This document shows, in pieces, positions 13,034 through 61,181 of a DNA stretch of 64,000 bases (position 1 is the first letter of the stretch; each line of letters starts with the position of its first letter). The DNA is from Candidatus Parcubacteria bacterium (lineage in GTDB: Bacteria > Patescibacteriota > Minisyncoccia > UBA6257 > HR35). Made by a program: the position numbers and the translations under genes. The notes under the pieces are model-generated. The model was not told the origin of the DNA and made no database searches. It saw only the letters and a program-made list of their open reading frames with translations. The DNA is taken from positions 143,915 to 207,914 of the forward strand of contig BPJI01000001.1 in NCBI GenBank assembly GCA_026004535.1, written 5' to 3'.

Positions 13034-13062
13034 TTGACAAAATATTGATCTTATATTATAAT
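13034..13062 (+). promoter_or_regulatory. Consensus sigma-70 promoter for the 23S-5S rRNA unit
   Basis: TTGACA (13034-13039), 17-nt spacer, TATAAT (13057-13062); ~360 nt upstream of the 23S 5' end. Confidence 0.7.
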
Positions 13063-15985: not shown

Positions 15986-16828
15986 AAAGGTTGAAATAAA
16001 CCTGTTGTCCTCCCTCTTGGTAACAAGAGGGTAACAAAAACGCCTTATAACGGTAGAGCCTGAAAGGGTAATACCGTGGGAAGTTAAGAAGGTAAAAATG
16101 AAAATAACTAAAGAACAAAAAGCAGCTTTGATTGGAATGATTTTAGGCGATGGTTATTTACAGTCAACTGGAAAGAAGAATGCCAGATTAAGATTAGAGC
16201 ATAGAGCGCAACATTATGAATATCTGGTTTGGAAAATGAAATTGTTGCCACAACTTTTTCAAGGTAAACCGAAAATAATAAAAAGACAACACCCCTTGAC
16301 AAAAAGAATTTATAGTTATGTTAGATGCCAATCAAATTCTTCGCCTTTGTTGGGAAAGTTAAGAAGATTGTTTTATCAAGATGGTCAAAAGAAAATCCCT
16401 GAAAATATAGAAAAACTGCTAATTGATGATCTTACATTTGCAATCTGGTTTTATGATGACGGTTATTATTCTAAAAAGGATGGTTATTGTGCTATATATT
16501 TGGGGAAGATTTCTTTTGCTGAAGCTAAACTTTTGAGTCAAGCAATAACCAATAAATTCAATCTTAAAAATAAAGTTGTTGATAAAAAGAATAAAGGCTT
16601 TATGTTGTACTTTCCAGCAAGTGAGAAGATAAAGATCAAAAATATTCTTCAAAAATATTTTGTTCCAATAATGAGTTATAAAATACCTTCTTAACCCCGT
16701 AACGACTGAAGTGTTAAGCTGAGAGACAGAGATATCTACTCTGTCTAAGACGGCGTTCTCATACAAAAAATGGAGATTAGACTCCATTTTTGTATGATGA
16801 AGATATAGTCTAATCCTTAAAGGATTGA
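15986..16828 (+). mobile_element. Group I intron in 23S rRNA at the GGGAUAA/CAGGC (omega-type, E. coli ~2449) site
   Basis: Exon sequence resumes as aacaggctggttgggcccgagagtccatatcgacgg; intron ends in G after a 5' exon U; contains a LAGLIDADG ORF. Confidence 0.75.
16098..16694 (+). CDS. LAGLIDADG homing endonuclease (intron-encoded)
   Basis: 198 aa; [11 protein letters not shown] motif plus a second half-site motif region; located inside 23S intron 1. Confidence 0.8.
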
Positions 16829-16953
16829 ACAGGCTGGTTGGGCCCGAGAGTCCATATCGACGGCCCAGCTCGGCACCTCGATGTCGGCTCACCCTAGCGC
16901 GGGGCTGAACAAGGTCCCAAGCGTCGGGCTGTTCGCCCGTTAAAAGGGTACGT

Positions 16954-16989
<36 letters not shown>

Positions 16990-17035
16990 TTATCTGCTGT
17001 CAGCGTTTGGAAGCCTGAGAGGAGCTGGACCTAGT

Positions 17036-17848
17036 AAATAATTGCTACTTCCTTGAGTAATCAAGGATGACAAAGTGGCTCATAACGGTAAAAGCCAGGG
17101 TTGGTCGGATAAACATCCTCACATAGACAGTCGGTCCCTGTCTATGCTATAATTTACTTGAGGACCGATGTTAACCTGAGGCTAATACCGTGGGAAGTCA
17201 ATCTAAAGCGAACAAAATTCATTTAGCTTATATTACTGGCTTTTTAGATGGCGATGGTAGTTTAATGATGCAAATTAAAAAGAGAAAAGATATTCAAAAC
17301 GGAAAAAGATTTAGTCAACTATTTGTTTTTATCAAGACAGTGGTCATGAAAGGCCACTGTTCTGGATTAGAAAGCAATTAGGCATCGGTTATATAAGTAG
17401 AAGGAATGATGGGATTACTGAATTAAGAATTAATGGATGTCGAACTATGGCAAGAATCTTAAAAATGCTGAAGCCGTATATAAAATTTAAAGTTAAACAA
17501 GTAGATATTATGATAAAATGCGGGCAACTTCTCCAAAGGAAGTTGAGCGAAAATAATTTAAAGAAAATAGCAGTGTATATCTATGAACTGCAGAAAGCCA
17601 ATTATGCAACTAGACGCAAGAAAACATTATCAGAAATTTGTCAAGCTTTAGGTTTGACCCCGTAACGACTGAGGCGAAAGCCGAGGGTTGAGATTTTTAT
17701 CTCAGCCAAGACGCCACCACCTACAACAAATGGAGGTGAGAAGTTAGAGATGGGGAATGAGTAATTAATTCTCGCGTCTCATCTCGCACCTTCATTAGTC
17801 GTAGGTTGAAGGTATAGTCTACTCCTTCTAGTAATAGAGGGGTTAGTG
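17036..17848 (+). mobile_element. Second group I intron in 23S rRNA, inserted in the sarcin-ricin-loop region (CCUAGU/ACGAGAGGACC)
   Basis: 5' exon ...ggagctggacctagt; 3' exon acgagaggaccggtctgg; shares ...taataccgtgggaagt... and ccccgtaacgactga...aagacg blocks with intron 1. Confidence 0.7.
17190..17665 (+). pseudogene. LAGLIDADG homing endonuclease split into two ORFs (frameshift)
   Basis: ORF 17190-17381 has YITGFLDGDGSL; ORF 17447-17665 continues a LAGLIDADG C-terminal half in another frame. Confidence 0.65.
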
Positions 17849-17927
17849 ACGAGAGGACCGGTCTGGGGCAGCCTCTGGTGTAGGAGTTGTTCCTCCAGGA
17901 GCATAGCTCCGTAGCTAAGCTGCCAAG

Positions 17928-17960
<33 letters not shown>

Positions 17961-18170
17961 CACCTCAAGATTAGGCTTCCCCATTAGGCCCCGGATAGAC
18001 CATCCGGTTGATAGGCCACAGCTGTAAGCTCCGTAAGGAGTTGAGGCAAGTGGTACTAATGGCCGATTGTTTTGCTGGACTTTGTCATCTCAGCACTGCA
18101 TCTTTTCCCCAATATACAGAACTATCAGAACTGGCGCAGAACTTACAGAATTGATTTATTAATTGCTTTT

Positions 18171-18296
18171 CCTCCCCGTGGTCGTATGTCTAGTCTGGAA
18201 CCACCCCTTACATTCCGAACAGTCAGGTGAAACAGACTAGAGCCGATGATAGTCCTTTAAGGGCGAAAGTAGGTACTGCGGGGAGGATTTTTAATT
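18171..18296 (+). rRNA. rrf: 5S rRNA
   Basis: cctccccgtggtcgtatgtctagtctggaaccacc...ccgaacagtcaggtgaaac...gtactgcggggagg with terminal helix pairing. Confidence 0.85.
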
Positions 18297-21276: not shown

Positions 21277-21350
21277 GGGCCTGTAGCTCAGTTGGTTAGA
21301 GCGCTGCCATGGCATGGCAGAGGTCGGGGGTTCGAGTCCCCCCAGGTCCA
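21277..21350 (+). tRNA. tRNA-Ala (anticodon GGC)
   Basis: gggcctgtagctcagttggttagagcgctgccatGGCatggcag...ggttcgagtccccccaggtcca; G3:U70 Ala identity pair present. Confidence 0.85.
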
Positions 21351-23207
21351 CTAATAACTTAAAGCATCGCAGTCAATTTCTTCAATTTCTATTCCTTCTA
21401 AAAGTTTTTTAAGGTTAAAATCAAGTTTTGGTTTAGTTTTAATAATTAATTCTAAAAAGAATCTTTTTCTAATTTTAAATGGCCGGGCAAAGATTGGACC
21501 AAAAATTTCTATTTCCGGGTTTTCTTTTTTTAGTCTTTCTTTAATGAAAAATAATTTCTCTTGAAGTTTTTTTAAATCTATACCCCCCTCTTTTAAAATA
21601 ACTAATCTCCGAAATGGCGGCAAACTATTAATTTCTCTTTCCTTTATTAATTCATTTATTATTTCTCCTGTTTTTATTTTTGCTTCAACTCGAGGATTAA
21701 TGATGTTACCAACTAAAAATATTTTTTCAGTTTTATTTTTAAAAAAATTTAAAATCCTGATAAATTTTTCTTTAACAAAAAAGTCCTGGGCAAAGTAAAA
21801 TTCATCAAAGTTATAGAAGAAAAAAGCATCAAAATTTTCAATTAGAGGATTAAGCAAAAGCAAACTCCCAATTAAAATATATCTTTCTTCTTGATTAAAC
21901 TCCTTGATTATTTTCTTACTTTCTTTTTCTAAAAAATAAATATTCTTTTTTTTATCAAAGTCATTATTTTCTGTCAGTTCTGCGTTAGTTCCACTTAGTT
22001 CTGCGTTAGTTATTGTTTTTATTAATTTATAAATAGCCTTAGCTCCCTTATGAGAAATTAAAAAACTCGATTTTTTCTTACAAAAAGGACAAATTTCGGG
22101 TAAGTTTTGATTTTTTAAACAATAAGAGCAGTAAATAAAATTTTCTTCAGCAGCCAAGAATTTACCGCAAATATTACAAGTTAAAGTTTGCAGACAAGAT
22201 TCACAAATCAAACGGTAGCCAAAAGTTTTTTCCGGAACAAAAATAACTATCTTCTTAAATTCTTTAATTTTATCTTCAAACTCTTTTTCTGAAATTCTTT
22301 CTATAACTACGAATTGTCGCGAATTATTATACGAATTCCCGCGAACATAACCTAAATTAAATTGTTGCGATTTATTCATGTTAATTTGTTTTTTTATTTG
22401 TGTTGATTCGTAAATTAATAAATCAAAAGAAGGTAAGTCAGAAATAGCTAAGTATTTTATCTTATTAATTTCAGCGAATTTTAAAAATATTTTGCGATAA
22501 TCAAAATAAGGTGGTTTGAAAAATTCTTTGTAAAAAAACGAGCCTTCATCATAAACAATTAATTGATCTAAATTTTGCCAAGGCAAAAATATTGAGTTTT
22601 TATTACCAATAAAGGTTTCTTGATTGGTGCTAGTAATTTTTTCTAAAAGAGAAAAGAAACTTTTTTGTTGGGGCAAAATTAAATTTGCTTGAGGCAAAAT
22701 CTGTTTTAAATATTCTAAATAATTTTCTTGAGGAACAATAATTAAACTTTTTTTATTTTTTAAAATATTTTCATTAAGTTGAGACAAAACTTCAATTTCA
22801 AATTTTTTATTTAATCCGCGTTGATCCGTGTTTGATCTGCGTAAATCAGTAGCCATCATTTTCTTATAAGGGAAAAATAAAGATAAAGCAGTAGCTAAAG
22901 AAATATTGCTGTAATTTTTTAACCAAAAAGCTAATTGAAGTTGCTGTTTAGTTAATAAAGGCGAAGGATTAATAATTTTTAAGACAGGTTTTAATTGAAG
23001 TTTTTTTTCTTTTAACAGGGCTCTTCTTTTTTCAATTGATTCAAGATTAAAAACATAACCTGGTATTTTTCTTTTTTTGAATTCAACTTCAACAATAGCT
23101 CCTCTTTTGATTTTCTTTTCTGAGAAATAAGAGAAAAAATCAGGCGCATTGCTCGGTAATCTAATTAGTGGTATAATATCTATAATTAAATATTTTGATT
23201 TAATCAT
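21351..23207 (-). CDS. priA: Primosomal protein N' (PriA)-like, with Cys4 zinc-binding region but no recognisable Walker A; carries two in-frame repeat inserts
   Basis: 618 aa; N-terminal 3'-DNA-binding-like region; LIIVPQENYLEYLKQ (helicase motif Ia-like); YDEGS; CESCLQTLTCNICGK...CSYC...CPFC; inserts ATDLRRSNTDQRGLN and ITNAELSGTNAELTENND. Confidence 0.65.
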   Translation of the reverse strand: MIKSKYLIIDIIPLIRLPSNAPDFFSYFSEKKIKRGAIVEVEFKKRKIPGYVFNLESIEKRRALLKEKKLQLKPVLKIINPSPLLTKQQLQLAFWLKNYSNISLATALSLFFPYKKMMATDLRRSNTDQRGLNKKFEIEVLSQLNENILKNKKSLIIVPQENYLEYLKQILPQANLILPQQKSFFSLLEKITSTNQETFIGNKNSIFLPWQNLDQLIVYDEGSFFYKEFFKPPYFDYRKIFLKFAEINKIKYLAISDLPSFDLLIYESTQIKKQINMNKSQQFNLGYVRGNSYNNSRQFVVIERISEKEFEDKIKEFKKIVIFVPEKTFGYRLICESCLQTLTCNICGKFLAAEENFIYCSYCLKNQNLPEICPFCKKKSSFLISHKGAKAIYKLIKTITNAELSGTNAELTENNDFDKKKNIYFLEKESKKIIKEFNQEERYILIGSLLLLNPLIENFDAFFFYNFDEFYFAQDFFVKEKFIRILNFFKNKTEKIFLVGNIINPRVEAKIKTGEIINELIKEREINSLPPFRRLVILKEGGIDLKKLQEKLFFIKERLKKENPEIEIFGPIFARPFKIRKRFFLELIIKTKPKLDFNLKKLLEGIEIEEIDCDALSY

Positions 23208-46428: not shown

Positions 46429-46459
46429 ATTTATTCAGATTTTTTCCACAATTAAAAAC

Positions 46460-46488
46460 TTGACATTTAAAAAAATATTAGGTATAAT
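46460..46488 (+). promoter_or_regulatory. Consensus sigma-70 promoter, copy A of a ~55 bp duplicated promoter cassette
   Basis: ttttccacaattaaaaacTTGACAtttaaaaaaatattaggTATAATaatc. Confidence 0.6.
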
Positions 46489-46527
46489 AATCGCAGTTAT
46501 TAAATTAATTTTTCCACAATTAAAAAC

Positions 46528-46556
46528 TTGACATTTAAAAATTTTTTAAGTATAAT
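46528..46556 (+). promoter_or_regulatory. Consensus sigma-70 promoter, copy B (tandem duplicate)
   Basis: ttttccacaattaaaaacTTGACAtttaaaaattttttaagTATAATtttt. Confidence 0.6.
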
Positions 46557-46653
46557 TTTTAATGTTAAAAGGTCTTAATTAATTTAATTAAAAGGCGTAA
46601 ATTAAACAAAAGCCATCTTCATTAATACAAGATAGATGGCTTTAAATTCAAAA

Positions 46654-48642
46654 ATGGAAAAAAATAAAAAAGCAATCGTCGGTTTAGTTTTAACCTCTCT
46701 TTTAACTTTTTCAGTCGTTCCTTATTTTAGTGTTTCAGCAGAGACCTGCAATCCTGATGCTTTAGTTCCAGTTGCTTATGGTCAAAGAGGAACATCTGTT
46801 CAAAATGCTCAGGCTTGTTTAATTGAAGCTGGTTACGATATTCCAGCCGGAGCAACTGGTTACTATGGTTCTCAAACAAGAGCAGCTGTTAGAGCTTTTT
46901 ATGCTGATTGGTATGGAGATTGGAGTGGTAACAATTTGGGACCAAGAGGTGTTGCTCAGCTTAGATCAATGTTGACTTCTGCTCCAGCAGAAGGAACAAC
47001 ATCATCAACAGGAAATCAACAACAATCATCAACAACAAGTGGTGTTTCTCAAGATGTTTTACTTCAAGTTTTAGCTAAACTTTCTGCTGGTGATACAGCT
47101 GGTGCTTTAGCTTTATTACTTCAAGCTTTAGGTGGTCAAGCACCATCACAAACAACAACTACACAAACAACAACTACACAAACAACTCAGCAACAAGCAA
47201 CTGAAGGTTTCTTAACTGTTGAGCAAGATCCAACTGTTACTGGTGTTACTTTAAGAGAAGGTGAGACAGGCAAGGTTTTTGGTTTAAGATTTAGAGCCGA
47301 TAATGGTCCAGTTACTGTTCAATCAGTTTTCTTAAGATGGGATGGAGGTGCTGCTCCTCATAGAATTATATCTAAATTAGAGGTTGTTGATGATCAAAAC
47401 AATGTTCTTTACTCAAGAAATGTTGATTCAACAACCTTCTTACAAGATTCAAACTTAAAATACTATCTTCCGGTAACTGGTCTTAATTATCAAGTCCAGA
47501 CTAATCAATACCGTTCACTCTTTGTTCAAGTAACTGTTTTAAACACTTTGCCAACAGGAACAGCAGGATCACATAATTTATTCTATGTTGGTCAAAATGA
47601 TGTTCGCGGAAGAGATGGTTTAGGTATTGATCGATTTGGGCCAACTTCTCAGATTGGACCAGTTTCAGTAACTCTTGAGGCATCCTTGGCTGGTTCAGCT
47701 TACTGGGTTGTGGCTAGAAATGCTAATTCACCATTAGCTGGTTTCATTATTGGTGATCCTACCAATGGTAATGCTGATAAAGTTGTAATGCTCAAATTTG
47801 ATGTTACTGCTAAAAATGATAGTTTAAGACTAACCGAAGTAAGTGGTACTCTTTCTCCAGCATCAGCAACATCAACATTTAGAACTGTTTACTTAAGACA
47901 AGGAAGTCAAATCTTGGATGTCAGAACACCTGATGCTTCTAATGGTAACTTCACTTTCAATGTTGTTCCTGCTAACTTCACAATCAACAAAGACCAAACA
48001 GTTACTTTTGAAGTTTTAGCTGATATTCGAGGTGCTACTTTAACTCCAGTAACTGCATCTGTAACTATTACAGGAGTTAAGGGCTTGAATAGTCTTGGTG
48101 GAACAGTACCTTTAACACCTGTTACTCTTTCAATTGCGTCTGATGTAATGTCAGCAACAACTCGTGCTCCAGAAGTTCAACTTGTTAGTATGACAACCAA
48201 CTATACACCACCATCTCAAACTGCCTCTTCCTCTTACAGTGTTTCTTTGACCTTTAATGTAACACCAAGAGGAGGAACAATCTATATGGGAACAACAACT
48301 GCTCCAACAACATTTTTAGGTCTTCAACTTCAAAAAAATTCAGGAGCAACTTCAACTCCCAATGGTGGTGTAGTTGTTCAGCTCAAACAAGGTTCAACTG
48401 ACATTACTAATACTCAACCAGTTGGTTCAACCTCTACTTTGTATCAGCTTGCTCAAGATACAACTTATACTTTTGTTGTAACTGCTAATCAAAATGGAGC
48501 ACCAAGTGGTACTGGTTTGGGAACAGGTCTCTATCGCTGGATTGTAAATTATATGAACTTTAAACAAGAGGATACTGGTTCTAATGTAGCTGTTCCTGGT
48601 GTCTCTAATGTCTTCCAAACTGGTTACACCAATGTTCAGTAA
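46654..48642 (+). CDS. Secreted protein with N-terminal peptidoglycan-binding-like domain, Thr/Gln-rich linker and large beta-rich domain (paralogue 1)
   Basis: Signal peptide; AQACLIEAGYDIPAGATGYYGSQTRAAVRAFYADWYGDW (PG_binding_1-like); start at the second Met (MEKNKKAIVG) matches paralogue 2; the ORF track starts at 46636 inside a 5' hairpin. Confidence 0.7.
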   Translation: MEKNKKAIVGLVLTSLLTFSVVPYFSVSAETCNPDALVPVAYGQRGTSVQNAQACLIEAGYDIPAGATGYYGSQTRAAVRAFYADWYGDWSGNNLGPRGVAQLRSMLTSAPAEGTTSSTGNQQQSSTTSGVSQDVLLQVLAKLSAGDTAGALALLLQALGGQAPSQTTTTQTTTTQTTQQQATEGFLTVEQDPTVTGVTLREGETGKVFGLRFRADNGPVTVQSVFLRWDGGAAPHRIISKLEVVDDQNNVLYSRNVDSTTFLQDSNLKYYLPVTGLNYQVQTNQYRSLFVQVTVLNTLPTGTAGSHNLFYVGQNDVRGRDGLGIDRFGPTSQIGPVSVTLEASLAGSAYWVVARNANSPLAGFIIGDPTNGNADKVVMLKFDVTAKNDSLRLTEVSGTLSPASATSTFRTVYLRQGSQILDVRTPDASNGNFTFNVVPANFTINKDQTVTFEVLADIRGATLTPVTASVTITGVKGLNSLGGTVPLTPVTLSIASDVMSATTRAPEVQLVSMTTNYTPPSQTASSSYSVSLTFNVTPRGGTIYMGTTTAPTTFLGLQLQKNSGATSTPNGGVVVQLKQGSTDITNTQPVGSTSTLYQLAQDTTYTFVVTANQNGAPSGTGLGTGLYRWIVNYMNFKQEDTGSNVAVPGVSNVFQTGYTNVQ

Positions 48643-48665
48643 TTGTTGTCAGTAAATTCTCAGCA

Positions 48666-48702
48666 AAAAGCCCCCAAAACAAAAGGGGGCTTTTTGCTTT
48701 TT
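48666..48702 (+). terminator. Rho-independent terminator
   Basis: aaaaagcccccaaaacaaaagggggctttttgcttttt. Confidence 0.8.
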
Positions 48703-48743
48703 ATTAAAAATTGTTCTAATAAAAGATTTTTCCACAATCCCAA

Positions 48744-48772
48744 TTTGACATTAAAAGATTTTTTAGGTATAA
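48744..48772 (+). promoter_or_regulatory. Consensus sigma-70 promoter, copy C of the duplicated cassette
   Basis: ttttccacaatcccaatTTGACAttaaaagattttttaggTATAATttttt. Confidence 0.6.
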
Positions 48773-48822
48773 TTTTTTTAAATTGAGGTCTAAATTAATT
48801 TATATTTTTTATATTTTTTAAA

Positions 48823-51087
48823 ATGGAAAGAAATAAAAAAGCACTCGTCGGTCTAATCTTGGCTTCTCTTTTAGCTTTTTCCGTCGTTCCTTATTTTAAT
48901 GTTTCAGCTCAAACTTGCGATCCTGATGCTTTAGTTCCAGTTGCCTATGGTCAAAGCGGAGCAGCAGTTAGAAATGCTCAATCCTGCTTAATTGAAGCTG
49001 GTTATGATATTCCAGCTGGAGCAACTGGCTACTATGGTTCTCAAACAAGAGCAGCTGTTAGAGCTTTTTATGCTGATTGGTATGGAGATTGGCATGGGAA
49101 TAATTTAGGTCCAAAAGGTGTGGCTCAACTTAAATCAATGTTAGCTTCAGCACCAGAAACACCATCAACAGGTAGTCAGCAACCATCAACAGGTGGTGTT
49201 TCTCAAGATCTTTTACTTCAGGTTTTAGCTAAACTTGCTGCTGGAGATACAGCTGGTGCTTTAGCTTTATTACTTCAAGCCTTGGGTGGTCAAGCTCCAA
49301 CTACAACAACCACAACCACAACTACAACTACAACCCAGCCAACTCAACCAACTCAACAAGCAACTGAAGGTTTCTTAACTGTTGAGCAAGATCCAACTGT
49401 TACTGGTGTTACTTTAAGAGAAGGTGAGACAGGCAAGGTTTTTGGTTTAAGATTCAGAGCTGATAATGGTCCTGTTACTGTTCAATCAGTTTTCTTAAGA
49501 TGGGATGGTAATACTGCTCCTTATAGAGTCATTTCTAAGTTAGAAGTTGTTGATGACCAAAACAATGTTCTTTTCTCAAGAAATGTTGATTCAACAACTT
49601 TCTTACAAGATTCAAGCTTAAATTACTATCTTCCAGTAACTGGTCTTAATTATCAAGTCCAAACTAATCAATACCGCTCAATCTTTGTCCAAGTAACTGT
49701 TGTTAATACTTTACCAACAGGAGTTAATTCCTTAGCTTTCCATGTTAATCAAAATGATGTTCGTGGAAGAGATGGTTTAGGTATTGATAGATTTGGACCA
49801 ACCTCAACTATTGGACCAGTTTCAGTAACTCTCCAAGCATCCTTAGCTGGTTCAGCTTACTGGGTTGTAGCTAGGAATGCTAATTCACCATTAGCAGGCT
49901 TCATTATTGGTGATCCTGTCAATGGTAATGCTGATAAAGTTGTAATGCTCAAATTTGATGTTACTGCTAAAAATGATAGTTTAAGACTAACCGAAGTAAG
50001 TGGTACTCTTTCTCCAGCATCAGCAACATCAACATTTAGAACTGTTTACTTAAGACAAGGAAGTCAAATCTTGGATGTCAGAACACCTGATGCTTCTAAT
50101 GGTAACTTCACTTTCAATGTTGTTCCTGCTAACTTTACTATTAATAAAGATCAAACAGTTACCTTTGAAGTTTTAGTTGATGTTCGTAATGCTACCTTAA
50201 CTCCAGTAACTGCATCTGTAACTGTTATAGGAGTTAAAGGCTTAAATAGCCTTGGTGGAACAGTTACTGCGTCATCTCTTTCAATTGCTTCTGATGTAAT
50301 GTCAGCAACAACTCGTGCTCCAGAAATAGTTTTAACAAATGTTAGCTCGACGTATACACCATCAGATATAAATCGTCCAAGTTCGCTCGACGCCAGCTTT
50401 GATATTAATATCACACCAAGAGGAGCAAGTTTAACTGTTTCTTCAACAGGAGCGTTCTTTGTTGAGCTTCAAAAAGGAGATGGGGCTAGAGCTACTGTTA
50501 ATAGAACAGCAACAGCAACTTTAACCGTTGATTTATCAGCTCAGAAAGCAACAACAACTGTTGTTTTAGATGGCCAAACAATTTTAGTTTTCGTTACTAG
50601 TACAGTAACAAGTGCCACTTCAACTGTTACTTCAACTGTAATAATAAATATTGCTAACGGAGGTACTTTGATATTGACACCATCACTCACTCTTAATGCT
50701 AATGCTACTGGAACTACTAATGCTACTGGAACTATTACAATGCCAGTACAAAACTTTAGTTTTTCAGTAACACGAAGCGCAACAACAACGCAGGACAGTA
50801 ATACTCTAGGTGCAACTTCAACTGCATCAGATATGAATTTAAGCACTTCTATATTTACAGTAATCTATGATGTTTTCTTTGGGCAGACAAGAATTAATCC
50901 TTCAGGAAGTGTTTATAATTTAGCCCAGGATCAGACATATACATTTAAACTCAAAAGTGTTTATACAAATGTTGCTTCTGGTGTCTCTGGTTTTAACAGA
51001 ATTCGAATTCTTGACTTTAGATGGGATTCTCGTAATGCCGACTTTATAAGGAACACCTTCTATACTTCTTATTATAATATTCAGTAA
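48823..51087 (+). CDS. Paralogue 2 of the secreted PG-binding-domain protein, with divergent C-terminal ~250 aa
   Basis: 754 aa; first ~500 aa near-identical to 46654-48180 at the DNA level; C-terminus differs but keeps NLAQDQTYTF and a terminal Y.N(V/I)Q. Confidence 0.75.
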   Translation: MERNKKALVGLILASLLAFSVVPYFNVSAQTCDPDALVPVAYGQSGAAVRNAQSCLIEAGYDIPAGATGYYGSQTRAAVRAFYADWYGDWHGNNLGPKGVAQLKSMLASAPETPSTGSQQPSTGGVSQDLLLQVLAKLAAGDTAGALALLLQALGGQAPTTTTTTTTTTTTQPTQPTQQATEGFLTVEQDPTVTGVTLREGETGKVFGLRFRADNGPVTVQSVFLRWDGNTAPYRVISKLEVVDDQNNVLFSRNVDSTTFLQDSSLNYYLPVTGLNYQVQTNQYRSIFVQVTVVNTLPTGVNSLAFHVNQNDVRGRDGLGIDRFGPTSTIGPVSVTLQASLAGSAYWVVARNANSPLAGFIIGDPVNGNADKVVMLKFDVTAKNDSLRLTEVSGTLSPASATSTFRTVYLRQGSQILDVRTPDASNGNFTFNVVPANFTINKDQTVTFEVLVDVRNATLTPVTASVTVIGVKGLNSLGGTVTASSLSIASDVMSATTRAPEIVLTNVSSTYTPSDINRPSSLDASFDINITPRGASLTVSSTGAFFVELQKGDGARATVNRTATATLTVDLSAQKATTTVVLDGQTILVFVTSTVTSATSTVTSTVIINIANGGTLILTPSLTLNANATGTTNATGTITMPVQNFSFSVTRSATTTQDSNTLGATSTASDMNLSTSIFTVIYDVFFGQTRINPSGSVYNLAQDQTYTFKLKSVYTNVASGVSGFNRIRILDFRWDSRNADFIRNTFYTSYYNIQ

Positions 51088-51104
51088 TTGTTGTAAATAA
51101 ATTT

Positions 51105-51133
51105 ATCATCTAATAGCCCGGCAGCCAGCCGGG
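51105..51133 (+). terminator. Rho-independent terminator
   Basis: agcccggcagccagccgggctattttttt. Confidence 0.8.
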
Positions 51134-51169
51134 CTATTTTTTTATGGTATAATTTAATTAATGTAGGAG

Positions 51170-51337
51170 ATGGATTTTTTAAAGAAAAGGGCAAAAGAAT
51201 TTTATAGCAACGCTCTCGAGATCTTTGAAAAGAAAGTTTATAATTTATCAGCTTTTAATTTAGAACAAGCAACCCAACTTTGGCTAAAATATTTGATTGC
51301 TAAAAAATTAGGCGAATGGCCTCAAACCCATTAAATG
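51170..51337 (+). CDS. HEPN-like N-terminal fragment (55 aa), stop overlaps the start of the following MNT gene
   Basis: MDFLKKRAKEFYSNALEIFEKKVYNLSAFNLEQATQLWLKYLIAKKLGEWPQTH*; helix pattern of an HEPN N-terminus but no Rx4-6H motif; not in the ORF track. Confidence 0.35.
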
Positions 51338-51692
51338 AAAAGTTTAATTAGTATTAGAAAAAAAATAGTTGAGAAGAAAAAGAAATATTTTGAACATTAT
51401 CTTGAATATGCGCAAAAAATTAAAGAAGCAGCAATTCAAGTTTTAGGTGAAGCGAAAGTTTTAGTTTTTGGTTCGGTTGTCAAAGGCAATTGGGGACCGA
51501 ATAGTGATATTGATGTTTTAATTATTTCTTCTAAATGGAGCGGAGACTATGAAAATGATAGCATAATTAAATTCAAAATAAAAAAATTAGCTGGGGTTAG
51601 TCATCCCTTTCCAAATCCATACAGCAACTCCTGAAGAATATCAAAACTGGTGGCTAAAATTTATAAAAGATAATTACATTGAGATAAAATAA
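51335..51692 (+). pseudogene. Minimal nucleotidyltransferase (MNT) domain gene with a frameshift
   Basis: ...LVFGSVVKGNWGPNSDIDVLII (GS...SDID NT motif); C-terminal ...IHTATPEEYQNWWLKFIKDNYIEIK is in a different frame from ~51595. Confidence 0.6.
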
Positions 51693-51758
51693 ATATACAG
51701 ACGGAATAGATAAAAAATACGGAACTAACAGAAACAACCACGGCAAACAGAGGCAGGT

Positions 51759-52510
51759 GTGTTAATAATGAAAACCGAGATTTTGATTTTATTTTTGCTT
51801 CTTCCATTATTACTTTTTGCTCAAAATTTAAGAGGAAGCAATTTAATTGATACTGTAATTGTTTCAGGACCGGATTTAATTTTCGAAGATAACCGGGTTG
51901 TTTTTAAATTTCAAGCAATTAATTATTCTTTAATAAAACCTAAATATTTTTACTTTCAAACCCAGCTTGGCCATTAGAAAGAAACTGGAAGAATTTTTAT
52001 GGAACAGTACAAAATTACTATTTACCAAAAGGAATAGGTCTTTACATCTTTAAGGTAAGAGCAGTTAATGATAGGGGTTATTATGATAGGACTCCCGCGA
52101 CTTATTATTTTTTAACTAAAACTTCTAAATTTTATCGAGACATTTCAATTTCTCCTTCTTGGGATGGAATGAGTTTAACTTTAACTAATAACACCAATAA
52201 AGAAATTAATATTACTAATTGGCAAATAAGAACATCAAATCTAATTTTTACAATTCCTAAAGGAGTTAAAGATTTTAATCCCGATCAAAATAAAAGAAAA
52301 GAAGAAAATATAATTTTACCTCCTTATGGCAGGGCAGTTTTTTATGCTGTTTATTCAAGTCCAACTTCGAGCTCCACGGGATTGCCTTTTCAAAATATTC
52401 CTTTATCTCCTTTTGGAGTTAACTTTTTAGGCAATCAATGTTTTGCTTATTTAGATAAAACTTATCCTTCAAATTTTTGGATGCTTAAAATATTCCTCCA
52501 GAATCTTTAA
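51759..52510 (+). pseudogene. Secreted protein with Y_Y_Y-like and lamin-tail-like domains, one frameshift in a T5 run (~51950)
   Basis: Signal peptide MKTEILILFLLLPLLLFAQN; after a +1 shift continues ...SNPAWPLERNWKNFYGTVQNYYLPKGIGLYIFKVRAVNDRGYYDRTPATYYF...MSLTLTNNTNKEINITNWQIRTSNLIFTIPKG...; could be a sequencing error. Confidence 0.5.
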
Positions 52511-52847
52511 ATATGGTTTTACTGGTAAAATATCTCGCCAATGTGCTGTTTAGCTTCAAAGTTTGATTGCGATGGAAGATATCTTTTAGCTCGACTCGGA
52601 ATAACGATTCGTTGACAAGCTGTTGAGATTGGTATAATTATAATTCTTGTTATCTAGAAATCGTAATAATAAAGATTTTTTTGGTAAAGAATGGAGAATT
52701 TATTTTGATACCCGTGATGAACTTGATAAGCAAGATAGAAAACCATTAAGAAGAATTTTTAAAGATAGATATGAAGAATTTCTCTTTATGACGACAAAGG
52801 TTTGCTTGTAATAAATATGATATTTATTAGTGATATAATTAAGAATA

Positions 52848-52921
52848 GCGGCGGTAGTTCAGTGGTAGAACGTCTCCCTTCCAAGGAGAAGGTCGCGGGT
52901 TCAAATCCCGTCCGCCGCTCA
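52848..52921 (+). tRNA. tRNA-Gly (anticodon TCC)
   Basis: gcggcggtagttcagtggtagaacgtctcccTTCCAAggagaaggtcgcgggttcaaatcccgtccgccgctc. Confidence 0.85.
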
Positions 52922-52979
52922 TGCACCTTTTTTAACTATTAAACCTTTAAACATTTAAACCGATAAATCAAACCTATTT

Positions 52980-53354
52980 ATGTTAAAATTATTATTCATG
53001 GTAAAAGGTTTCGAAGAACTGATTGTTTTTCAAAAAGCAAGAGATTTAACTAAACTTATTTACAATTTAACTAAAAAAGAAGAGTTTAAGAAAGATTTTG
53101 GTTTAGTTGATCATATCAGGCGGGCATCAGTTTCAATAATTTCTAACATTGCTGAGGGTTTTGAGCGAGGAACAAAAGAAGAACTTCCACATTTTCTTTA
53201 TATAGCCAAAGCTTCTTGTGGCGAAGTAAGGGCTCAAATAAAAGTTTCAGGGTTTAAAGGTTTAAAATATAAGAAAGTAAAACCTAAAGATGTCGAAGAA
53301 TTCGATAGAATGTTAGAAAAAATTTTAGCCAAAAGACAAACGCTAATCATTTAA
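52980..53354 (+). CDS. Four-helix-bundle protein (TIGR02436 family: 'S23 ribosomal'/rRNA-IVS protein, also the Avd family of DGRs)
   Basis: 124 aa; ...IVFQKARDLTKLIYNLTKK...SNIAEGFERGTKEELPHFLYIAKASCGEVRAQI... family signature. Confidence 0.65.
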   Translation: MLKLLFMVKGFEELIVFQKARDLTKLIYNLTKKEEFKKDFGLVDHIRRASVSIISNIAEGFERGTKEELPHFLYIAKASCGEVRAQIKVSGFKGLKYKKVKPKDVEEFDRMLEKILAKRQTLII

Positions 53355-53357
53355 TCA

Positions 53358-55418
53358 ATGACAAAAAAATTAATAAGTTATTTGACAGTTATTTTATTTT
53401 TGATCCCTTTTACTCTTTTAATTGTTGATAATAAAGTTCTTTTTCCTTTTATTACGACCAAAGCAATATTTTTTAGAATTTTAGTTTCAATTGGGTTAGT
53501 TTTAGCAATTTGGCTTTATTTGTTAAATCCTAACTCTTTTCCTAAAAAAAATTATCTTTTAATAGCAATTGCCTTATTTTTTATTGCTAATATTATTGCC
53601 ACAATTTTTAGTGTTAATCCCTTTAGATCTTTTTGGGGAAATGCCGAAAGAATGGAAGGGACCTGGTCATTATTTTTTTATCTTTCTTATTTTTTTCTTT
53701 TATTTACTTTATTTAGCTTCAACCCCCAAGCCAAAAAAACTATTTTTTACTCTATTTTAATTGTTACAACCCTAATTTCTCTTTTAGAAATTCAACAAGC
53801 ATTTATCTTAAAACAAGAAAGACCATCAGCAACGTTAGGTAATCCAACTTATATTGGCTTTTTAAATCTTTTAACAATTTTTATTATTTTATATTTTTAT
53901 TTTGAATCTCGAAATAGAATAGAAAAATCAATTTATATTTCTTTGATTTTGCTTAATCTTTTATCTTTAATTGGCTCACAAACTCGCGGATCTATTTTAG
54001 GTTTATTAGTTGGTATTTTTATTTTTTCTTTTCTTTATCTTTTATTTTCCAAAATTCAAACTCGAAAGAAAATTTTAGTCCTTAGTCTGCTTTTACTTTT
54101 TATAATTTCTTTCTTTTTATTTTTAAAAACAGAATTTGCTCTTAAAATTCCGGGGATAAAAAGAATTAGCGAAACACTGCAAGATCCAGTTTCTGTTTTC
54201 CCTCGTTTTTATGCTTGGAAAATATTTTTAACTGCTTTTGAGAAAAAACCTGTGTTTGGTTGGGGGCCGGAAACAATGCCAATTGCTTTTTTTGCTAATT
54301 TTGATCCCCAAATTTTTAATTACGAACAAGCAATTTTTGATCGTCCTCATAATAAATTCGTTGAAATTTTGGCTTCAACCGGAATTTTTGGTTTTTTAAC
54401 CTGGCTTTTAATTTTTATCGCTTTTTTCTATTATTTAATTAAATCCAATATTAATTTTTATCAAAAACTAACTCTTTCAGCTTTTATTTTTTCTTATTTA
54501 GCTCAAAATTTTTCTTTATTTGATATGCAAGCAAGTTATGTTTTGTTTTTTTATGGCTTAGCTTTGATTTCTCCAAAAATTGAGTTTAAAGAAAACCGCC
54601 AGCGCTTTATTCGCCCTTACATTATTTTAGTTTCCGGTTTAAGCCTGGTAGCAATTATTTTTCATCTTCAACATTTTTATATTGTCAGAAGCATTATTAC
54701 TTTTCTAAATCAATCAGATCCTAAAATTGCCGGTGAAAACTTTTTGAAGCTTTCAGAAATTGCTGGACCATTTTTAACTGAAGAAGCAGTTATGGCAATG
54801 AATTATTTTTCTAATAATCTTAGCCAAATTAAAGATTTCAAAACCCTAACGAATTTTTACAATCTTGTTGAAAAAGCATATCAGAAAGATCCCAAAGATT
54901 ATCGTTTGGCAAGTGCTTTTATTTCAATGAAAACAATATTAATTGATGTTCAAAAACAAGTTGGTCAGGATCCAAGTAAAAATATTATTGAAGTTGAAAA
55001 AATTTATTCTGATTTAATTTCTCTTTATCCCAATTTTCCTGAAATTTATATTAATTATGCGAGATTTTTGTTAAGTAATAATAAAAAAGAAAAAGCTTTT
55101 GAGATATTAAAAAATGGCGAAAAAATGGCCCAAAATTATCCTAAATATTACTTTTATGAATCAGTTTTGTATTTTGAAATTAAAGAAAAAAAATTAGCTT
55201 ATCAAAAATTAAAAATAGCAACCCAAAGTTTGAAATTTAATTCTGATCAAGAATTTGAAATCGCTTTAAAAATTTATTTAGCTAATCAAGATGTGGAAAA
55301 CTCAAAAAATATCATTTCTCTTTGGTTGAAGCAAAATAATTCAAGTTCTACCCAGCAAAAAATAGCTCAAATTTTACAAGAATACAATCAAGGCCAATTT
55401 TTAAAACTTGACAAATAA
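53358..55418 (+). CDS. O-antigen ligase/polymerase-like polytopic membrane protein with C-terminal TPR-like repeats
   Basis: 686 aa; ~10 TM helices with the Wzy_C-type loop (GSQTRGSILGLLVG); soluble helical-repeat C-terminal third. Confidence 0.6.
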   Translation: MTKKLISYLTVILFLIPFTLLIVDNKVLFPFITTKAIFFRILVSIGLVLAIWLYLLNPNSFPKKNYLLIAIALFFIANIIATIFSVNPFRSFWGNAERMEGTWSLFFYLSYFFLLFTLFSFNPQAKKTIFYSILIVTTLISLLEIQQAFILKQERPSATLGNPTYIGFLNLLTIFIILYFYFESRNRIEKSIYISLILLNLLSLIGSQTRGSILGLLVGIFIFSFLYLLFSKIQTRKKILVLSLLLLFIISFFLFLKTEFALKIPGIKRISETLQDPVSVFPRFYAWKIFLTAFEKKPVFGWGPETMPIAFFANFDPQIFNYEQAIFDRPHNKFVEILASTGIFGFLTWLLIFIAFFYYLIKSNINFYQKLTLSAFIFSYLAQNFSLFDMQASYVLFFYGLALISPKIEFKENRQRFIRPYIILVSGLSLVAIIFHLQHFYIVRSIITFLNQSDPKIAGENFLKLSEIAGPFLTEEAVMAMNYFSNNLSQIKDFKTLTNFYNLVEKAYQKDPKDYRLASAFISMKTILIDVQKQVGQDPSKNIIEVEKIYSDLISLYPNFPEIYINYARFLLSNNKKEKAFEILKNGEKMAQNYPKYYFYESVLYFEIKEKKLAYQKLKIATQSLKFNSDQEFEIALKIYLANQDVENSKNIISLWLKQNNSSSTQQKIAQILQEYNQGQFLKLDK

Positions 55419-55480
55419 AAATTTTTGATAAAATAATAAACTTACCAATTTAAAGCTGACAGCTACTAAAATTGTTTTAT

Positions 55481-55753
55481 CTACCCGGATGAATACCGGA
55501 TTGTTTTACCCTGATGGTTACCGGAATAGATTACCCGGATAGTTAACCGGATTATATTTACCCGGATGATTACCGGATAAAAAATATTTTATAAATCATC
55601 CGGTTTAAATCCGGGTGACTTATCCGGTTATAATACGGGTAGAAGTTGTTATCTGGTTTATATCCGGGTATTTGTAGTATTTACATCCGGTTTGAATCCG
55701 GGTAGTTATATCCGGTTCATATCCGGGTAGTATTATCCGGTTTAAATCCGGGC
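55481..55753. repeat. Intergenic inverted ('palindromic') array of ~20 TACCCGGAT/ACCGGATAA units with ~11-12 bp phasing, upstream of nrdJ
   Basis: Left arm ctacccggatgaataccggattg...ttacccggatgattaccggataaaaaat; centre ~55595; right arm inverted atccggtttaaatccgggtga...atccggttcatatccgggtagtattatccggtttaaatccgggc. Confidence 0.85.
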
Positions 55754-55813
55754 AAAAATATTTTCTACCGCCCGCGTTTGAAAAGGTCTTCAATTAGAAT
55801 TTTTATTTAAAAG

Positions 55814-58800
55814 ATGCCCAAAAGAACATTGACTTCTAATCAGGTTGTTTTTAAAACAAGTTCAAATTTTTTAAAAATCCAAAGATTTTTTACTAAAGAA
55901 AGAGTGCACCCTTATGATGAGGTTAAATGGATAAAAACAACAGCTGAAATTCCAGGTTCTAATTTTAAAATGGAAGATGTGGAATTTCCTGATTTTTACA
56001 GTCAAAATGCAATTAATATTATTGCTTCTAAATATTTCAAAATCAACAAAGGTAAACAAGAAAAAAGTTTAAAAGAACTAATTGATCGAGTTGTTAAAAC
56101 GTTTAAAAAATGGGGTTTAGAACAGGGTTATTTTAATGAAAAAGAAGCCAAAATTTTTGAGGATGAACTAACTTATATCTTGCTTCATCAATATGCTGCT
56201 TTTAATTCTCCTGTTTGGTTTAATTTCGGTGTTGAAGGAAGAAGTCAACAAGGCGCAGCTTGTTTTATCTTAGATGTTCAAGATAATATGGAATCAATTT
56301 TGGATTGGATTAAAACTGAAGGAATGATTTTTAAAGGAGGCTCAGGCTCTGGAGTTAATTTGTCAAAATTAAGAGCCAAAGGAGAACCTCTTTCAACTGG
56401 CGGTGCTTCTTCTGGAGTTATTTCTTTTATGAAAGCAGCCGATGCAGTTGCAGGAAGTATAAAATCTGGTGGAAGTACGCGTAGGGCGGCAAAGATGGTG
56501 ATTTTAAATGCTGATCATCCTGAAATTATGGATTTTATAAGAGTTAAAGCTGAGGAAGAAAATAAAGTTAGAGCCTTAATGGAGGCAGGTTATGACATGA
56601 CTGATCTAAATAATCCTTTGTGGCAAAATATTTTCTTTCAAAATGCTAATAATTCAGTTAGAATTCCTGATGATTTAATGGAAGCAGCAATGAAAGATGA
56701 AAAATGGCAGACTTATTATCGAACAACAGGTAAGGCTTCACAAGCTTATAAAGCTAAGGATATTTTGTGGGAAATTGCTAAAGCTGCTTGGGAATGTGGT
56801 GATCCAGGAGTTCAATTTGATGACATTATTCAAAAATGGCATACTTGTAAAAATTCAGGACGAATTGAAGCAACCAACCCTTGTAGCGAATATATATTTC
56901 TTAACTGGACAAGCTGCAACTTAAGTTCAATCAATCTTTTGAAATTCTTAAAAGAAGATGGTAAGTTTGATATTCCTGCATTTTTGCATACTGTCAGAGT
57001 AATGTTTTTAGCTCAAGATATTATGATTTCAAAAGCTGATTATCCTCATCCAAAAATTACTGAAGAAACTAAAAAATATCGAACAATTGGTTTGGGTTAT
57101 ACTAATTTAGGCGCCTTGATTATGGCTTTGGGTCTTCCTTATGATTCTGATGAAGCAAGAAATTTGGCTGCAAGTATTACTGCCTTAATGACCGGGGAAG
57201 CCTATAAACTTTCAACCCAAATTTCAGCTAAACTTGAACCATTTCCTGAATATGAAAAAAATAAAGAACCAATGTTGGAGGTAATGGAAATGCACCGAAA
57301 AGCTCTATTGAAATTAATACAGAACTTTACAGAACTAAAACAAAACTCGCAGAAAAAACACAGAACTGACGGAACTAACACAGAACTTACAGAAAATATC
57401 GCCGCAGAACATACAGAACTAATACAGAACTTGCAGAAAAATTCAGCTAGTTCTGCGTCATATTCTGTTAGTTCTGTTACTGAGGAAATTTTAGAAAAAG
57501 CAAAAGAAGTTTGGGATGAAGTAATTGAAAATGGAAAAAAATATGGCTTCAGGAATGCTCAAGCAACAGTAATTGCGCCTACTGGTTGTTTAGTAGGGAA
57601 TAGTTTAATTTCAACTGAATACGGTTTAGTTCCGTTAGAAACACTTGGGAATCCATTGGGTTATAAGTGGCAAGATTTAAATATTGAGGTGATGACCGAT
57701 GAAGGACCACAATTAGCTACCAAATTTTATGTTAATGGTTTAGTTGAAACTAGAAAAATAGTTACTAAAAATGGTTATGAAATCGTAGGCACTCCAGAAC
57801 ATAGAATTAAAGTTTTCGATAAAGAATCTGGTGAGCTTAAATGGAAATATTTTGCTGATATCAAAGAGGGAGATATTGTAGCTTTAGAAATGAATACAAT
57901 TTTTGGCAGTCCTAAGCCAATCGAACTTCCACCTTTACCAGAACTTCATTGGAATCAAGATTTTGATGCCAAAGTTCCAAGACATATGAATGAAGAATTA
58001 GCAGAAATAGTTGGCTATTTTATGGGCGACGGCAGTCTACATTCTAAAGGTTTAAGATTTTGCGTGACCCAAGAAGATAAAGATGTGATTGAAAGATTAA
58101 GATATTTAATTAAAAGTCAATTTAATCTTGATATATTTTTAACCCAGAGGCTTGGTTATATAGAAGTTAGCGTAAACTCAGTTCCTCTTGTTTTATGGTG
58201 GGAAGCTTGTGGTTTTAAAAAGAAACAAAAGAAAGTTGGTAAAGGCTGGGAACCTCATATTCCTCTTACTATCCTTTATTCTAACGATCGAAAAATTTAT
58301 ACTGCTTTTTTAAGAGGTCTTTTCGAAGCAGATGGTACTGTCTGGAAGGATTCAAAAACTCCAGCTCTTTCGACTCATAGCAAAGAATTTCATGACCAAA
58401 TAAAATATTTACTTTTAGCTTTAGGAATACCAACAAAATCTAAAATTGGAATTTCAGGTTGGGACAAGAAAAACCTCTATGTTCTTTATGTGAAAAATAG
58501 AGAATATGCTAAAAAATTCGGAGAAGAAATTGGTTTTATTGGAGAAAGAAAAAATAAATTACTTGAAAATATCACCACAAAACCTAGTCAAATAAAAATG
58601 GATCAAGTTTATCTTTCTCAAAATCTTGTTGAAGCCATAACACCTCTTTTAACCAAAAGGGAAAGAGACAGTTTAAGGTTAGAATTTAAAAGAAAAAATG
58701 CTATTACTAGAAGTTTTGCTTTAAGGATTTTAGATAAAGTTGAAAATAAAGCCTTTAACTATTATGTAAATAAAATTTTCTTTGATGTTGTCAAAACAAA

Positions 58801-60844: not shown

Positions 60845-61181
60845 ACCGGATAATAATTTTTTCTACCTGGATGCAAACCGGATAAAACCACCCGGATTTA
60901 GACCGGATATAATTACCCGGATATAAACAGGATATAATTACCCGGATGTAAACCGGATAAGTTACCCGGATTATAACCGGATGATTTATAAAATATATTT
61001 AATCCGGTATTTATCCGGGTAATCTATCCGGTAAGTTATCCGTGTAAATATAATCCGGTATTCATCCGGGTAGATATTTTAATCCGGTGTTTATCGGGGT
61101 AATCTATCCGGTTGACTATCTGGGTAATATTTTAGTATCCGGTAATAATCCGGGTAATCTATCTGGTAGATATCCGGGTAA
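60845..61181. repeat. Second intergenic inverted array of CCGGATAA-family units between xerC and rpsO (divergent promoter region)
   Basis: Left arm aaaccggataataa...cacccggatttagaccggatataattacccggatataaacaggatataattacccggatgtaaaccggataag...; centre ~60985; right arm inverted atccggtatttatccgggtaatctatccggtaagttatcc... Confidence 0.85.

Follow-up and report, generated by a model that had tools for sequence, protein, structure and literature searches.

The surface layer (S-layer) of the candidate phyla radiation (CPR), or Patescibacteria, is known from cryo-electron tomography (cryo-ET). Experimental verification of an S-layer protein is still lacking for the group, and a 2026 review still describes the evidence for S-layers in the phylum as morphological only. 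Patescibacterial proteins composed of immunoglobulin-like (Ig-like) domains have been predicted to form p6 "hexagonal pyramid" S-layers, in which the C-terminal domain of a six-domain form lies at the pyramid tip and a three-Ig-domain form of 643-727 aa gives a predicted 13.5 nm lattice (bioRxiv 10.1101/2024.05.28.596244 supplement). A 13 nm lattice seen in CPR cells by cryo-ET matches this value. The three-domain members include Yanofskybacteria GMX57981.1 (692 aa), Nealsonbacteria UMX47672.1 (727 aa), and Vogelbacteria A0A1G2QP48 (643 aa) (bioRxiv 10.1101/2024.05.28.596244). Separately, in three Paceibacteria, genes for peptidoglycan-binding domain (PGBD) proteins with "relatively similar structures" ranked in the top five of all signal-peptide genes by expression; PMX_810_sub_00350 (2079 nt, 692 aa, with a signal peptide) is expressed far above its neighbors, and host attachment was proposed for these highly expressed proteins (Kuroda et al. 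2024, PMC10936435). The locus described here lies in a 64,000-nt stretch of a Candidatus Parcubacteria bacterium genome (assembly GCA_026004535.1, contig BPJI01000001.1, positions 143,915 to 207,914), referred to below as the window. It contains two tandem genes, A and B, that probably encode two isoforms of a major peptidoglycan-anchored surface protein, most likely an S-layer protein.

The A and B proteins belong to the same phylum as the published Ig-like and PGBD proteins and share their plan: a signal peptide, an N-terminal peptidoglycan-binding domain, and three Ig-like domains within 640-750 aa. Very high expression, which was measured for the published PGBD proteins, would be expected of A and B from their promoters, and the part exposed at the tip would be their variable C-terminal domain, as in the published pyramid form. 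Tandem isoforms, gene conversion, two tip types, domain mosaicism, and a conserved promoter and leader are found here and are described in neither report (10.1101/2024.05.28.596244, PMC10936435). A and B are a further case of a known kind of surface-protein evolution, not a new system. In Clostridioides difficile, S-layer cassette types of slpA, which combine a conserved wall-binding part with a variable exposed part, are exchanged by recombination. The present genes resemble slpA in their conserved anchor, their hypervariable exposed part, and the existence of discrete old types that move by homologous recombination via conserved flanks. However, slpA has a CWB2 anchor, occurs as one gene per genome, gives a product that is cleaved into two subunits, and forms no converting tandem pair. 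Campylobacter fetus sapA/sapB and Lactobacillus acidophilus slpA/slpB are S-layer gene families with conserved ends; as in A and B, the copies share an anchoring region, differ elsewhere, and recombine. In these systems, only one copy is active at any time, selected by relocation or inversion of a single promoter, whereas A and B have the same orientation and their own promoters and terminators. No sign of promoter switching is present at A and B: both genes lie on the forward strand, and neither an invertible segment nor long inverted repeats beside the promoters are found.

Gene A spans 46654-48642 (662 aa), and gene B spans 48823-51087 (754 aa). A preliminary description of the window had placed two adjacent genes at these positions, and both are open reading frames (ORFs) there, tandem paralogues on the forward (+) strand, as are the domains, control elements, and shared tracts described below. 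The database copy of gene A (GIW67317.1, KatS3mg096_185, 668 aa) starts at 46636. This alternative ATG (46636-46638), used by the public annotation and the ORF lister, falls within the hairpin of the leader, in its 3' arm, and has no match in B or the orthologues. The start is therefore placed at 46654, where the MEKNKK sequence agrees with gene B and the orthologues, all of which begin MEK/RNKK. The GC content of the two genes (0.37-0.38) is above that of the window (~27%). A foreign origin was considered as the cause and ruled out because GC at third codon positions (0.16-0.17) equals the genome value; A and B are thus native, and their GC excess is due to their Thr/Gly/Ala/Val-rich composition.

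Both proteins begin with a predicted signal peptide (aa 1-29; 46654-46740 in A), a hydrophobic N-terminus that ends in VSA followed by E(Q)TC in A, B, and the orthologues. In the AlphaFold2 (AF2) models, it is a helix with a low predicted local distance difference test (pLDDT) score. A PG_binding_1 domain follows (aa 30-110; 46741-46983 in A, 48910-49152 in B). Pfam PF01471 matches aa 45-82 of this domain with E = 2e-7 in A and 1.7e-7 in B (bit scores of 31.5 and 31.8, above the cut-off of 23), and C32, C55, and a GATGYYG motif are invariant across the family. Next come Thr/Gln-rich linkers and a helical hairpin (aa 111-183 in A, aa 111-181 in B), Ig-like domain 1 (Ig1; aa 184-347 in A, 47203-47694; aa 182-343 in B), Ig-like domain 2 (Ig2; aa 348-507 in A, 47695-48174; aa 344-502 in B), and the tip domain, D3 (aa 508-662 in A, 48175-48639; aa 503-754 in B, ~50329-51084). 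The D3 domain of B bears a ~100-aa Thr-rich insertion (aa 560-675, low pLDDT). AF2 models built from family alignments reach a pLDDT of 86 for A and 82 for B and give the same order in both: signal peptide, compact peptidoglycan-binding domain, disordered Thr/Gln/Ser linker, helical hairpin, second Thr-rich linker, and three beta-sandwiches.

Foldseek searches of the Protein Data Bank with these models returned only strings of Ig-like domains (PrgB, the C-terminal domains of antigen I/II (AgI/II), integrin legs, and complement MG domains); TM-scores were low, and sequence identity was 8-14%. The mature proteins are slightly acidic, with a pI of 5.3, 14% Thr, and two Cys residues, both in the anchor, a composition typical of S-layer proteins. 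A Pfam search at E<=1 found PG_binding_1 only, with no SLH or CWB2 repeats, and the C-termini (...GYTNVQ and ...SYYNIQ) carry neither an LPXTG motif nor a hydrophobic tail. The predicted signal peptide, the PF01471 match, and the consensus promoters described below support the initial view of A and B as secreted, peptidoglycan-binding surface proteins with very strong promoters. The predicted structure, with its peptidoglycan anchor, linkers, three Ig-like domains, and lack of an enzyme domain, also fits the S-layer or adhesin role that was suggested at that stage. PG_binding_1 is common in wall hydrolases, and an NCBIfam SleB model matches weakly over the peptidoglycan-binding part only (E = 0.015; 15 bits, where the cut-off is 236); A and B could, on this basis, be cell-wall enzymes that hydrolyze or remodel peptidoglycan. 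However, neither Pfam nor NCBIfam detects a catalytic domain in either protein, and the remainder of each is all Ig-like beta-sandwich. CPR genomes are rich in diversity-generating retroelements, and A and B could instead be targets of such an element, but blastn finds no template-repeat-like copy of either 3' region in the window, returning only the regions themselves. An explanation by a wall enzyme or a retroelement is extremely improbable.

The two genes part abruptly at the base of the tip. Just past their last shared tract (48139-48174 in A, 50290-50325 in B), A/B identity drops from ~90% to ~50%, and this homology breakpoint (48175-48180; ~50326 in B) coincides with the boundary between Ig2 and D3. 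Beyond it, the genes become similar again only over the final codons and ~20 nt downstream of the stop (48612-48658 versus 51057-51103, 77%). The preliminary description had the last 170-250 codons diverging while short motifs were kept. The divergence is real, although it covers 152 codons in A and 250 in B; the motifs common to both at the very end (Y.LAQD.TYTF ... Y.N.Q) are real as well but occur throughout the family. Simple frameshifts, named there as an explanation that would undo the claim, do not produce the difference, as tblastn in all frames shows merely weak in-frame similarity between the C-termini. Each tip has its own relatives. The A tip (last 152 residues) is 66% identical to that of P0003, the closest orthologue (locus L067), and 53-58% identical to many others. 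The B tip (last 250 residues) is 54% identical to that of P0002 (L065) and 52% identical to that of P0051, and these two are the only other long-tip members among 120 listed matches. The A and B tips share ~34% identity with one another, a value equal to the family background. By homology, the short tip corresponds to the two ends of the long tip, between which the insertion lies. Because each tip is closer to tips of other organisms than to that of its neighbor, these comparisons indicate two pre-existing, old domain types rather than divergence in place.

This result bears directly on the origin suggested in the preliminary description, duplication with C-terminal diversification, taken here to mean that the whole gene was recently duplicated and that the C-termini then diverged rapidly in place under positive selection. 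The tandem placement and the short motifs shared at the very end and ~20 nt past the stop are compatible with such a history. However, diversification after duplication does not agree with the tip identities: 66% for A and 52-54% for B in comparisons with other organisms, but 34% within the pair. The shared end motifs are family-wide. A comparison of dN/dS (the ratio of nonsynonymous to synonymous substitution rates) by region, which had been recommended, gives a synonymous rate (dS) of 0.29 and a dN/dS of 0.24 for the shared 5' part, and a D3 dN/dS below 1 in all comparisons, which speaks against this history. In addition, dS for the signal peptide and peptidoglycan-binding part is 0.45 between A and B and 0.43 between A and the L067 orthologue. 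Because the anchor parts of A and B are as distant as those of two species, recent duplication of a whole gene is not enough to account for the pair. We consider recent duplication with in-place divergence very unlikely.

Upstream of the breakpoint, the shared 1.5 kb is less uniform than the near-identity first ascribed to it. It contains 158 differences in 1500 aligned nt, corresponding to 89.5% DNA and 89% amino-acid identity, and these differences are patchy. The two genes form a mosaic, in which stretches neighboring the identical tracts have dS values of 0.3-0.5. The longest identical tract (216 nt; 47763-47978 in A, 49920-50135 in B) lies in Ig2 and has a dS of 0. The longest runs in permuted alignments average 50 nt, with a maximum of 131 nt, and none of the 5000 permutations reaches 216 nt; this result holds on third codon positions alone. 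Selection was examined as an alternative to conversion for this tract and ruled out. Codon identity at conserved residues among orthologues is 0.60-0.64 in the tract versus 0.63-0.76 in the rest of Ig1-Ig2, giving no extra synonymous conservation. Because dS is 0 without additional synonymous constraint, the 216-nt identity is assigned to recent gene conversion. A second identical tract of 101 nt at the start of Ig1 (47191-47291 in A, 49354-49454 in B) is a probable conversion tract; it lies in a region that is somewhat conserved between orthologues and is less decisive. The gene conversion between copies that had been suggested from the sequence is thus borne out.

To place A and B in their family, loci of other genomes are cited by L numbers and their proteins by P numbers. 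A word-indexed search returned more than 120 relatives, nearly all of 610-670 aa and from Parcubacteria/Minisyncoccia metagenomes, which are labeled "hypothetical" or "peptidoglycan-binding domain-containing". A profile search of 1.8 billion representatives gave 337 clusters (at 50% identity) under a threshold of E<=1e-30 and 1177 when it was relaxed to E<=1e-10; in most of them, the length is 590-700 aa and the match extends across the three Ig-like domains. Mean pairwise identity in the family declines from the wall outwards, from 72% in the peptidoglycan-binding domain to 54% in Ig1, 43% in Ig2, and 32% in D3. At the DNA level, the nearest relative depends on the domain. The signal peptide and peptidoglycan-binding part of A is 86.7% identical to B and 83.9% identical to L067. 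Ig1 is 88.9% identical between A and B, and both are ~85.5% identical to L066 (KatS3mg093), which, by its name, belongs to the same sample series as the window assembly. Ig2 is 93.2% identical between A and B and at most 65% identical to anything else. In D3, A and B share 48% identity, compared with 71% for A versus L067 and 55% for B versus L065. Similar discordance is seen in other genomes: long-tip P0002 (L065) and short-tip P0005 (L063) are 95% identical in Ig1, 89% in Ig2, and 48% in D3, with a homologous 3' flank, and the anchor domain of P0002 is 99% identical to that of P0062/P0064. Because the nearest relative differs by domain, recombination both within and between genomes is indicated, and the family therefore appears to evolve by domain-wise exchange at both levels. 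A and B may be either an old paralogue pair or a gene with an imported allele, the middle part being under homogenization.

The N-terminal signal-plus-anchor module extends beyond the family and is 45-77% identical to that of other secreted proteins from related genomes. A second secreted family (725-745 aa, motif VSETxVQVxGIDEPDIVKTDG), found at ~position 6001 in L014, L019, L026, L027, L029-L031, and L033, has the same signal peptide and PG_binding_1 module, with up to 73% identity over residues 1-124. Because it is shared with other secreted proteins, the module appears to be a general wall anchor in Paceibacterota.

Sixteen other loci with full-length or near-full-length family members were compared, 13 of them with ~6 kb flanks. 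The family gene is single-copy in all 16, and the search for more paralogues that had been proposed, carried out on the 64 kb window, gave no copy besides A and B. The tandem pair could be an assembly artefact, in which short-tip and long-tip strain alleles of one locus were joined. Long- and short-type genes do occupy one locus with homologous flanks in different samples (L065 versus L063/L064), the other loci are all single-copy, many family members are on 2-3 kb contigs broken at gene edges, and a second assembly of the pair was not found. However, the junction is unique and well formed: the A terminator is followed by a distinct, shortened B promoter and leader with no remnant of RecG, which lies upstream of the family gene in closer relatives. 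The two terminators differ, the copies are 11% different outside the short identical tracts and hence easily resolved, and the contig is 556 kb long. An artefact of this kind is improbable. The short contigs (L063, L064, L065, and others), which begin or end within ~150 nt of the gene, are what strain-level mosaicism would produce if it disrupts metagenome assembly.

Control elements of the two genes were located by coordinate. Gene A has two promoter cassettes. P1 (46441-46488) consists of a TTTTTCCACAAT box (46441-46452), a -35 TTGACA (46460-46465), a 17-nt spacer, and a -10 TATAAT (46483-46488). P2 (46509-46556; box 46509-46520, -35 at 46528-46533, -10 at 46551-46556) lies 68 nt downstream and is 92% identical to P1. 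Gene B has a single cassette (48726-48773; box 48727-48738, -35 at 48745-48750, -10 at 48768-48773) that is 69% identical to P1. All three copies of the 48-nt cassette open with TTTTTCCACAAT. The perfect TTGACA-17-TATAAT promoters that had been reported before each gene are indeed present (46460-46488, 46528-46556, 48745-48773), and they account for three of the five such sites in the window, where 0.02 are expected; one of the remaining two is directly upstream of the 23S rRNA gene. A pair of promoters ~68 nt apart is also found upstream of the family gene in the orthologous loci L063 and L067, so the P1+P2 arrangement of gene A is ancestral. Of the triplicated cassette described earlier, the three copies therefore stand, but a recent triplication does not: B has a single, cut-down copy of an ancestral pair. 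The strong terminators noted after each gene are likewise confirmed. That of gene A (48662-48703) has a 14-bp perfect stem, AGCAAAAAGCCCCC/GGGGGCTTTTTGCT (48662-48698), with a 9-nt loop and a T-run, and that of gene B (51112-51145) has an 11-bp stem, AATAGCCCGGC/GCCGGGCTATT (51112-51138), with a 5-nt loop and T7.

The leader of gene A (46557-46653, ~95 nt) contains AAGGTCTTAATTAA at 46569-46582 and a related motif, AAGGCGTAAATTA, that lies ~62 nt upstream of the ATG. A stem-loop occupies 46609-46643, and the leader has no Shine-Dalgarno sequence. Folding of this hairpin gives a minimum free energy (MFE) of -17.1 kcal/mol and a z-score of -3.45, and none of 200 shuffled sequences is equally stable. 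Hairpins of unrelated sequence occupy the equivalent position in L001, L002 (z = -4.7), L009, L063, and L066. The leader of gene B (48774-48822) is 41 nt shorter by alignment of units, has one GAGGTCTAAATTAA motif (48785-48798), and forms no hairpin (folding z = 0.06). The gene A leader thus has two AAGGTC..AATTAA motifs and that of gene B one. Promoter, box, and leader hairpin are retained across orthologues with merely 32-60% protein identity. Strong or multiple promoters and a stabilizing 5' leader hairpin are also features of Lactobacillus slpA mRNA. The control regions point to strong, possibly regulated transcription and a stabilized mRNA, and gene A is probably the major isoform. As an observation of its own, the leader motif AAGGTC(N2-3)AATTA occurs at 46569-46582, 48785-48798, 12317-12330, and 55783-55797 in the window and in leaders of L001-L015. 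In surface-protein genes, an MscS-like gene (12344), and rpoB, it is located just past the -10, 20-30 nt upstream of the ATG, or at both places, too distant from the start codon for a Shine-Dalgarno sequence, which these genes do not obviously have.

The upstream box, T(T/A)TCCACAAT, is found 5-7 nt upstream of the -35. Within the window, it occurs at 46441-46452, 46509-46520, 48727-48738, and 12266-12276, and elsewhere upstream of the family gene in L001-L015, L063, and L067, and at L004:10371 and L013:10393. In 732 kb of sequence, the composite of TCCACAAT, 5-7 nt, TTGAC..., and a -10 has 21 occurrences, 17 of which precede the family gene and two of which precede rpoB (L004, L013). Over the same sequence, it is found almost exclusively before the surface-protein gene and, in two of the genomes, before rpoB. 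Its form in most orthologues is TTATCCACAAT, which includes the canonical DnaA-box consensus, TTATCCACA. A PhoP-like direct repeat and a classical A/T-rich UP element were considered as identities for the box and set aside on account of its spacing and C-rich core.

These observations allow us to propose, with moderate confidence, that A and B are two isoforms of a major peptidoglycan-anchored surface protein of the S-layer type. Both proteins would be exported, and the signal peptide would be cleaved after VSA. The N-terminal PG_binding_1 domain, with its conserved Cys pair, would hold them on the wall, and the Thr/Gln-rich linkers, possibly O-glycosylated, would distance them from it, so that the three Ig-like beta-sandwiches point outwards with D3 outermost. 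In this scheme, A would be the ancestral and probably dominant form, with two consensus promoters, a long hairpin leader, and the common short D3, and B an additional copy that has a single promoter, lacks the hairpin, and bears the rare long D3. Conversion between the copies would keep the wall-proximal domains alike, chiefly Ig2 and Ig1, while tip domains would be swapped as modules among related lineages via recombination. The cell would show two alternative outer faces on a common scaffold, plausibly in answer to selection by phages or host contact.

The closest competitor to an S-layer role is that A and B are host-attachment adhesins used in episymbiosis or parasitism, which would form no lattice. 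The variable tip would then serve host recognition, two genes would provide two specificities, and the peptidoglycan-binding domain would either anchor the protein in the cell's own wall or bind the wall of the host. Highly expressed PGBD proteins have been read in this way by Kuroda et al. (PMC10936435), the tip is the most variable part, and the best Foldseek matches are to the Gram-positive adhesins PrgB and the C-terminal domains of AgI/II, which are strings of Ig-like beta-sandwiches on a wall-attached stalk. However, A and B have no LPXTG sortase signal or other adhesin hallmark, and their anchoring is predicted to be N-terminal and noncovalent. The family gene is also single-copy, syntenic, located beside housekeeping genes, equipped with rRNA-grade promoters, and present in nearly every related genome sampled, which fits a structural envelope component better than a specialized adhesin. 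We therefore regard the adhesin explanation as possible, though doubtful; the two roles are not mutually exclusive.

Several observations weigh against an S-layer isoform pair. The fold matches to Gram-positive adhesins are equally good, and lattice formation by A and B therefore remains a prediction. The gene anatomy, promoters and terminators, domain architecture, conversion tracts, discordance between domains, and single-copy synteny in other genomes are observed directly, while high expression, lattice formation, glycosylation, and the selective cause are inferred; very high expression, in particular, is deduced from the rRNA-type consensus promoters, their tandem arrangement, and the leader hairpin, and codon usage of A and B shows no special bias as a proxy for it. 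The likeness to GMX57981.1, UMX47672.1, and A0A1G2QP48 is one of architecture and size; look-ups by cluster returned none of these accessions, and the highly expressed Yanofskyibacterium gene has different neighbors. No tandem pair occurs in the 16 other loci, so that the arrangement is seen in this assembly alone, and neither exact look-ups nor two metagenome scans (with the long-tip alignment and with B) found an independent copy of A or B.

The locus provides a well-defined S-layer protein candidate with a complete regulatory anatomy and a conserved Wzy_C/TPR neighbor. Two tips on one scaffold also constitute a natural experiment, in which constrained anchor and proximal domains can be compared with an exchanged tip. 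Three questions thereby become directly testable: the identity of the lattice-forming protein, the face that is turned outwards, and a possible link between tip type and phage or host range. A bolder proposal, which we consider speculative and rather unlikely, is a population-wide Paceibacteria "shuffling locus" whose anchor, stalk, and tip are swapped separately between co-resident lineages. Two tip types would have become fixed here on a scaffold that gene conversion homogenizes, and the resulting S-layer would have two faces and determine phage or host specificity. The promoter, and that of rpoB in some genomes, would be governed by the TTATCCACAAT box as a DnaA-box consensus, tying output of the envelope protein to the replication initiator.

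The conserved neighbor lies downstream of gene B at 53358-55418 (+) and encodes a membrane protein of 686 aa that combines a Wzy_C (O-antigen-ligase-like) domain (PF04932, E = 4e-23) with C-terminal TPRs. A 690-730-aa Wzy_C/TPR gene is found downstream of the family gene in L001-L004, L008, L011-L013, L066, and L067, even where the upstream neighbor differs, and the protein is a possible partner in glycosylation or envelope assembly. Between gene B and the Wzy_C gene are NTP_transf_2 (51335-51634), tRNA-Gly (52848-52920), and 23S_rRNA_IVP (52980-53354). The slot between the surface-protein and Wzy_C genes (51335-53354 in the window; L001:7080-7690; L064:2141-2625) resembles a small variable islet, with small toxin-antitoxin-like genes (NTP_transf_2, HEPN, ParE/HigB, 23S_rRNA_IVP) that vary by genome. 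A 359-aa gene after the KatS3mg093 orthologue was examined as a possible relative and proved to be unrelated.

Farther from the locus, a 23S rRNA gene (13416-16024) is preceded by the perfect TTGACA-17-TATAAT site at 13034. Past the 23S rRNA gene, a LAGLIDADG_2 endonuclease ORF (16098-16694) comes before the 5S rRNA gene, which is reached only at 18174; this arrangement suggests an intron or insertion near the 23S 3' end. Because no 16S rRNA gene lies upstream of the 23S gene (13034-18284 region), the rRNA genes are unlinked. An Rfam match to HPnc0260, a Helicobacter antisense RNA (21315-21470, - strand), is just above the gathering score, overlaps tRNA-Ala, and is probably spurious. The window also holds two ~280-330-nt arrays of ~25-nt units at 55485-55746, in the rpoB leader, and at 60846-61172. 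Other Paceibacteria loci have no comparable CCGGAT cluster, and a single weak 6-unit cluster was found in an unrelated Acidobacteria locus (L057). Smaller CCGGAT clusters are present in the window at 7428-7509 and 11254-11383. In each array, the left half consists of TACCCGGATnnnTACCGGAT and the right half of ATCCGGTTTnnATCCGGGTA, so that the whole forms one giant imperfect hairpin; folding of 55440-55815 gives an MFE of -135 kcal/mol and a z-score of -8.1, and none of 100 shuffled sequences is equally stable.

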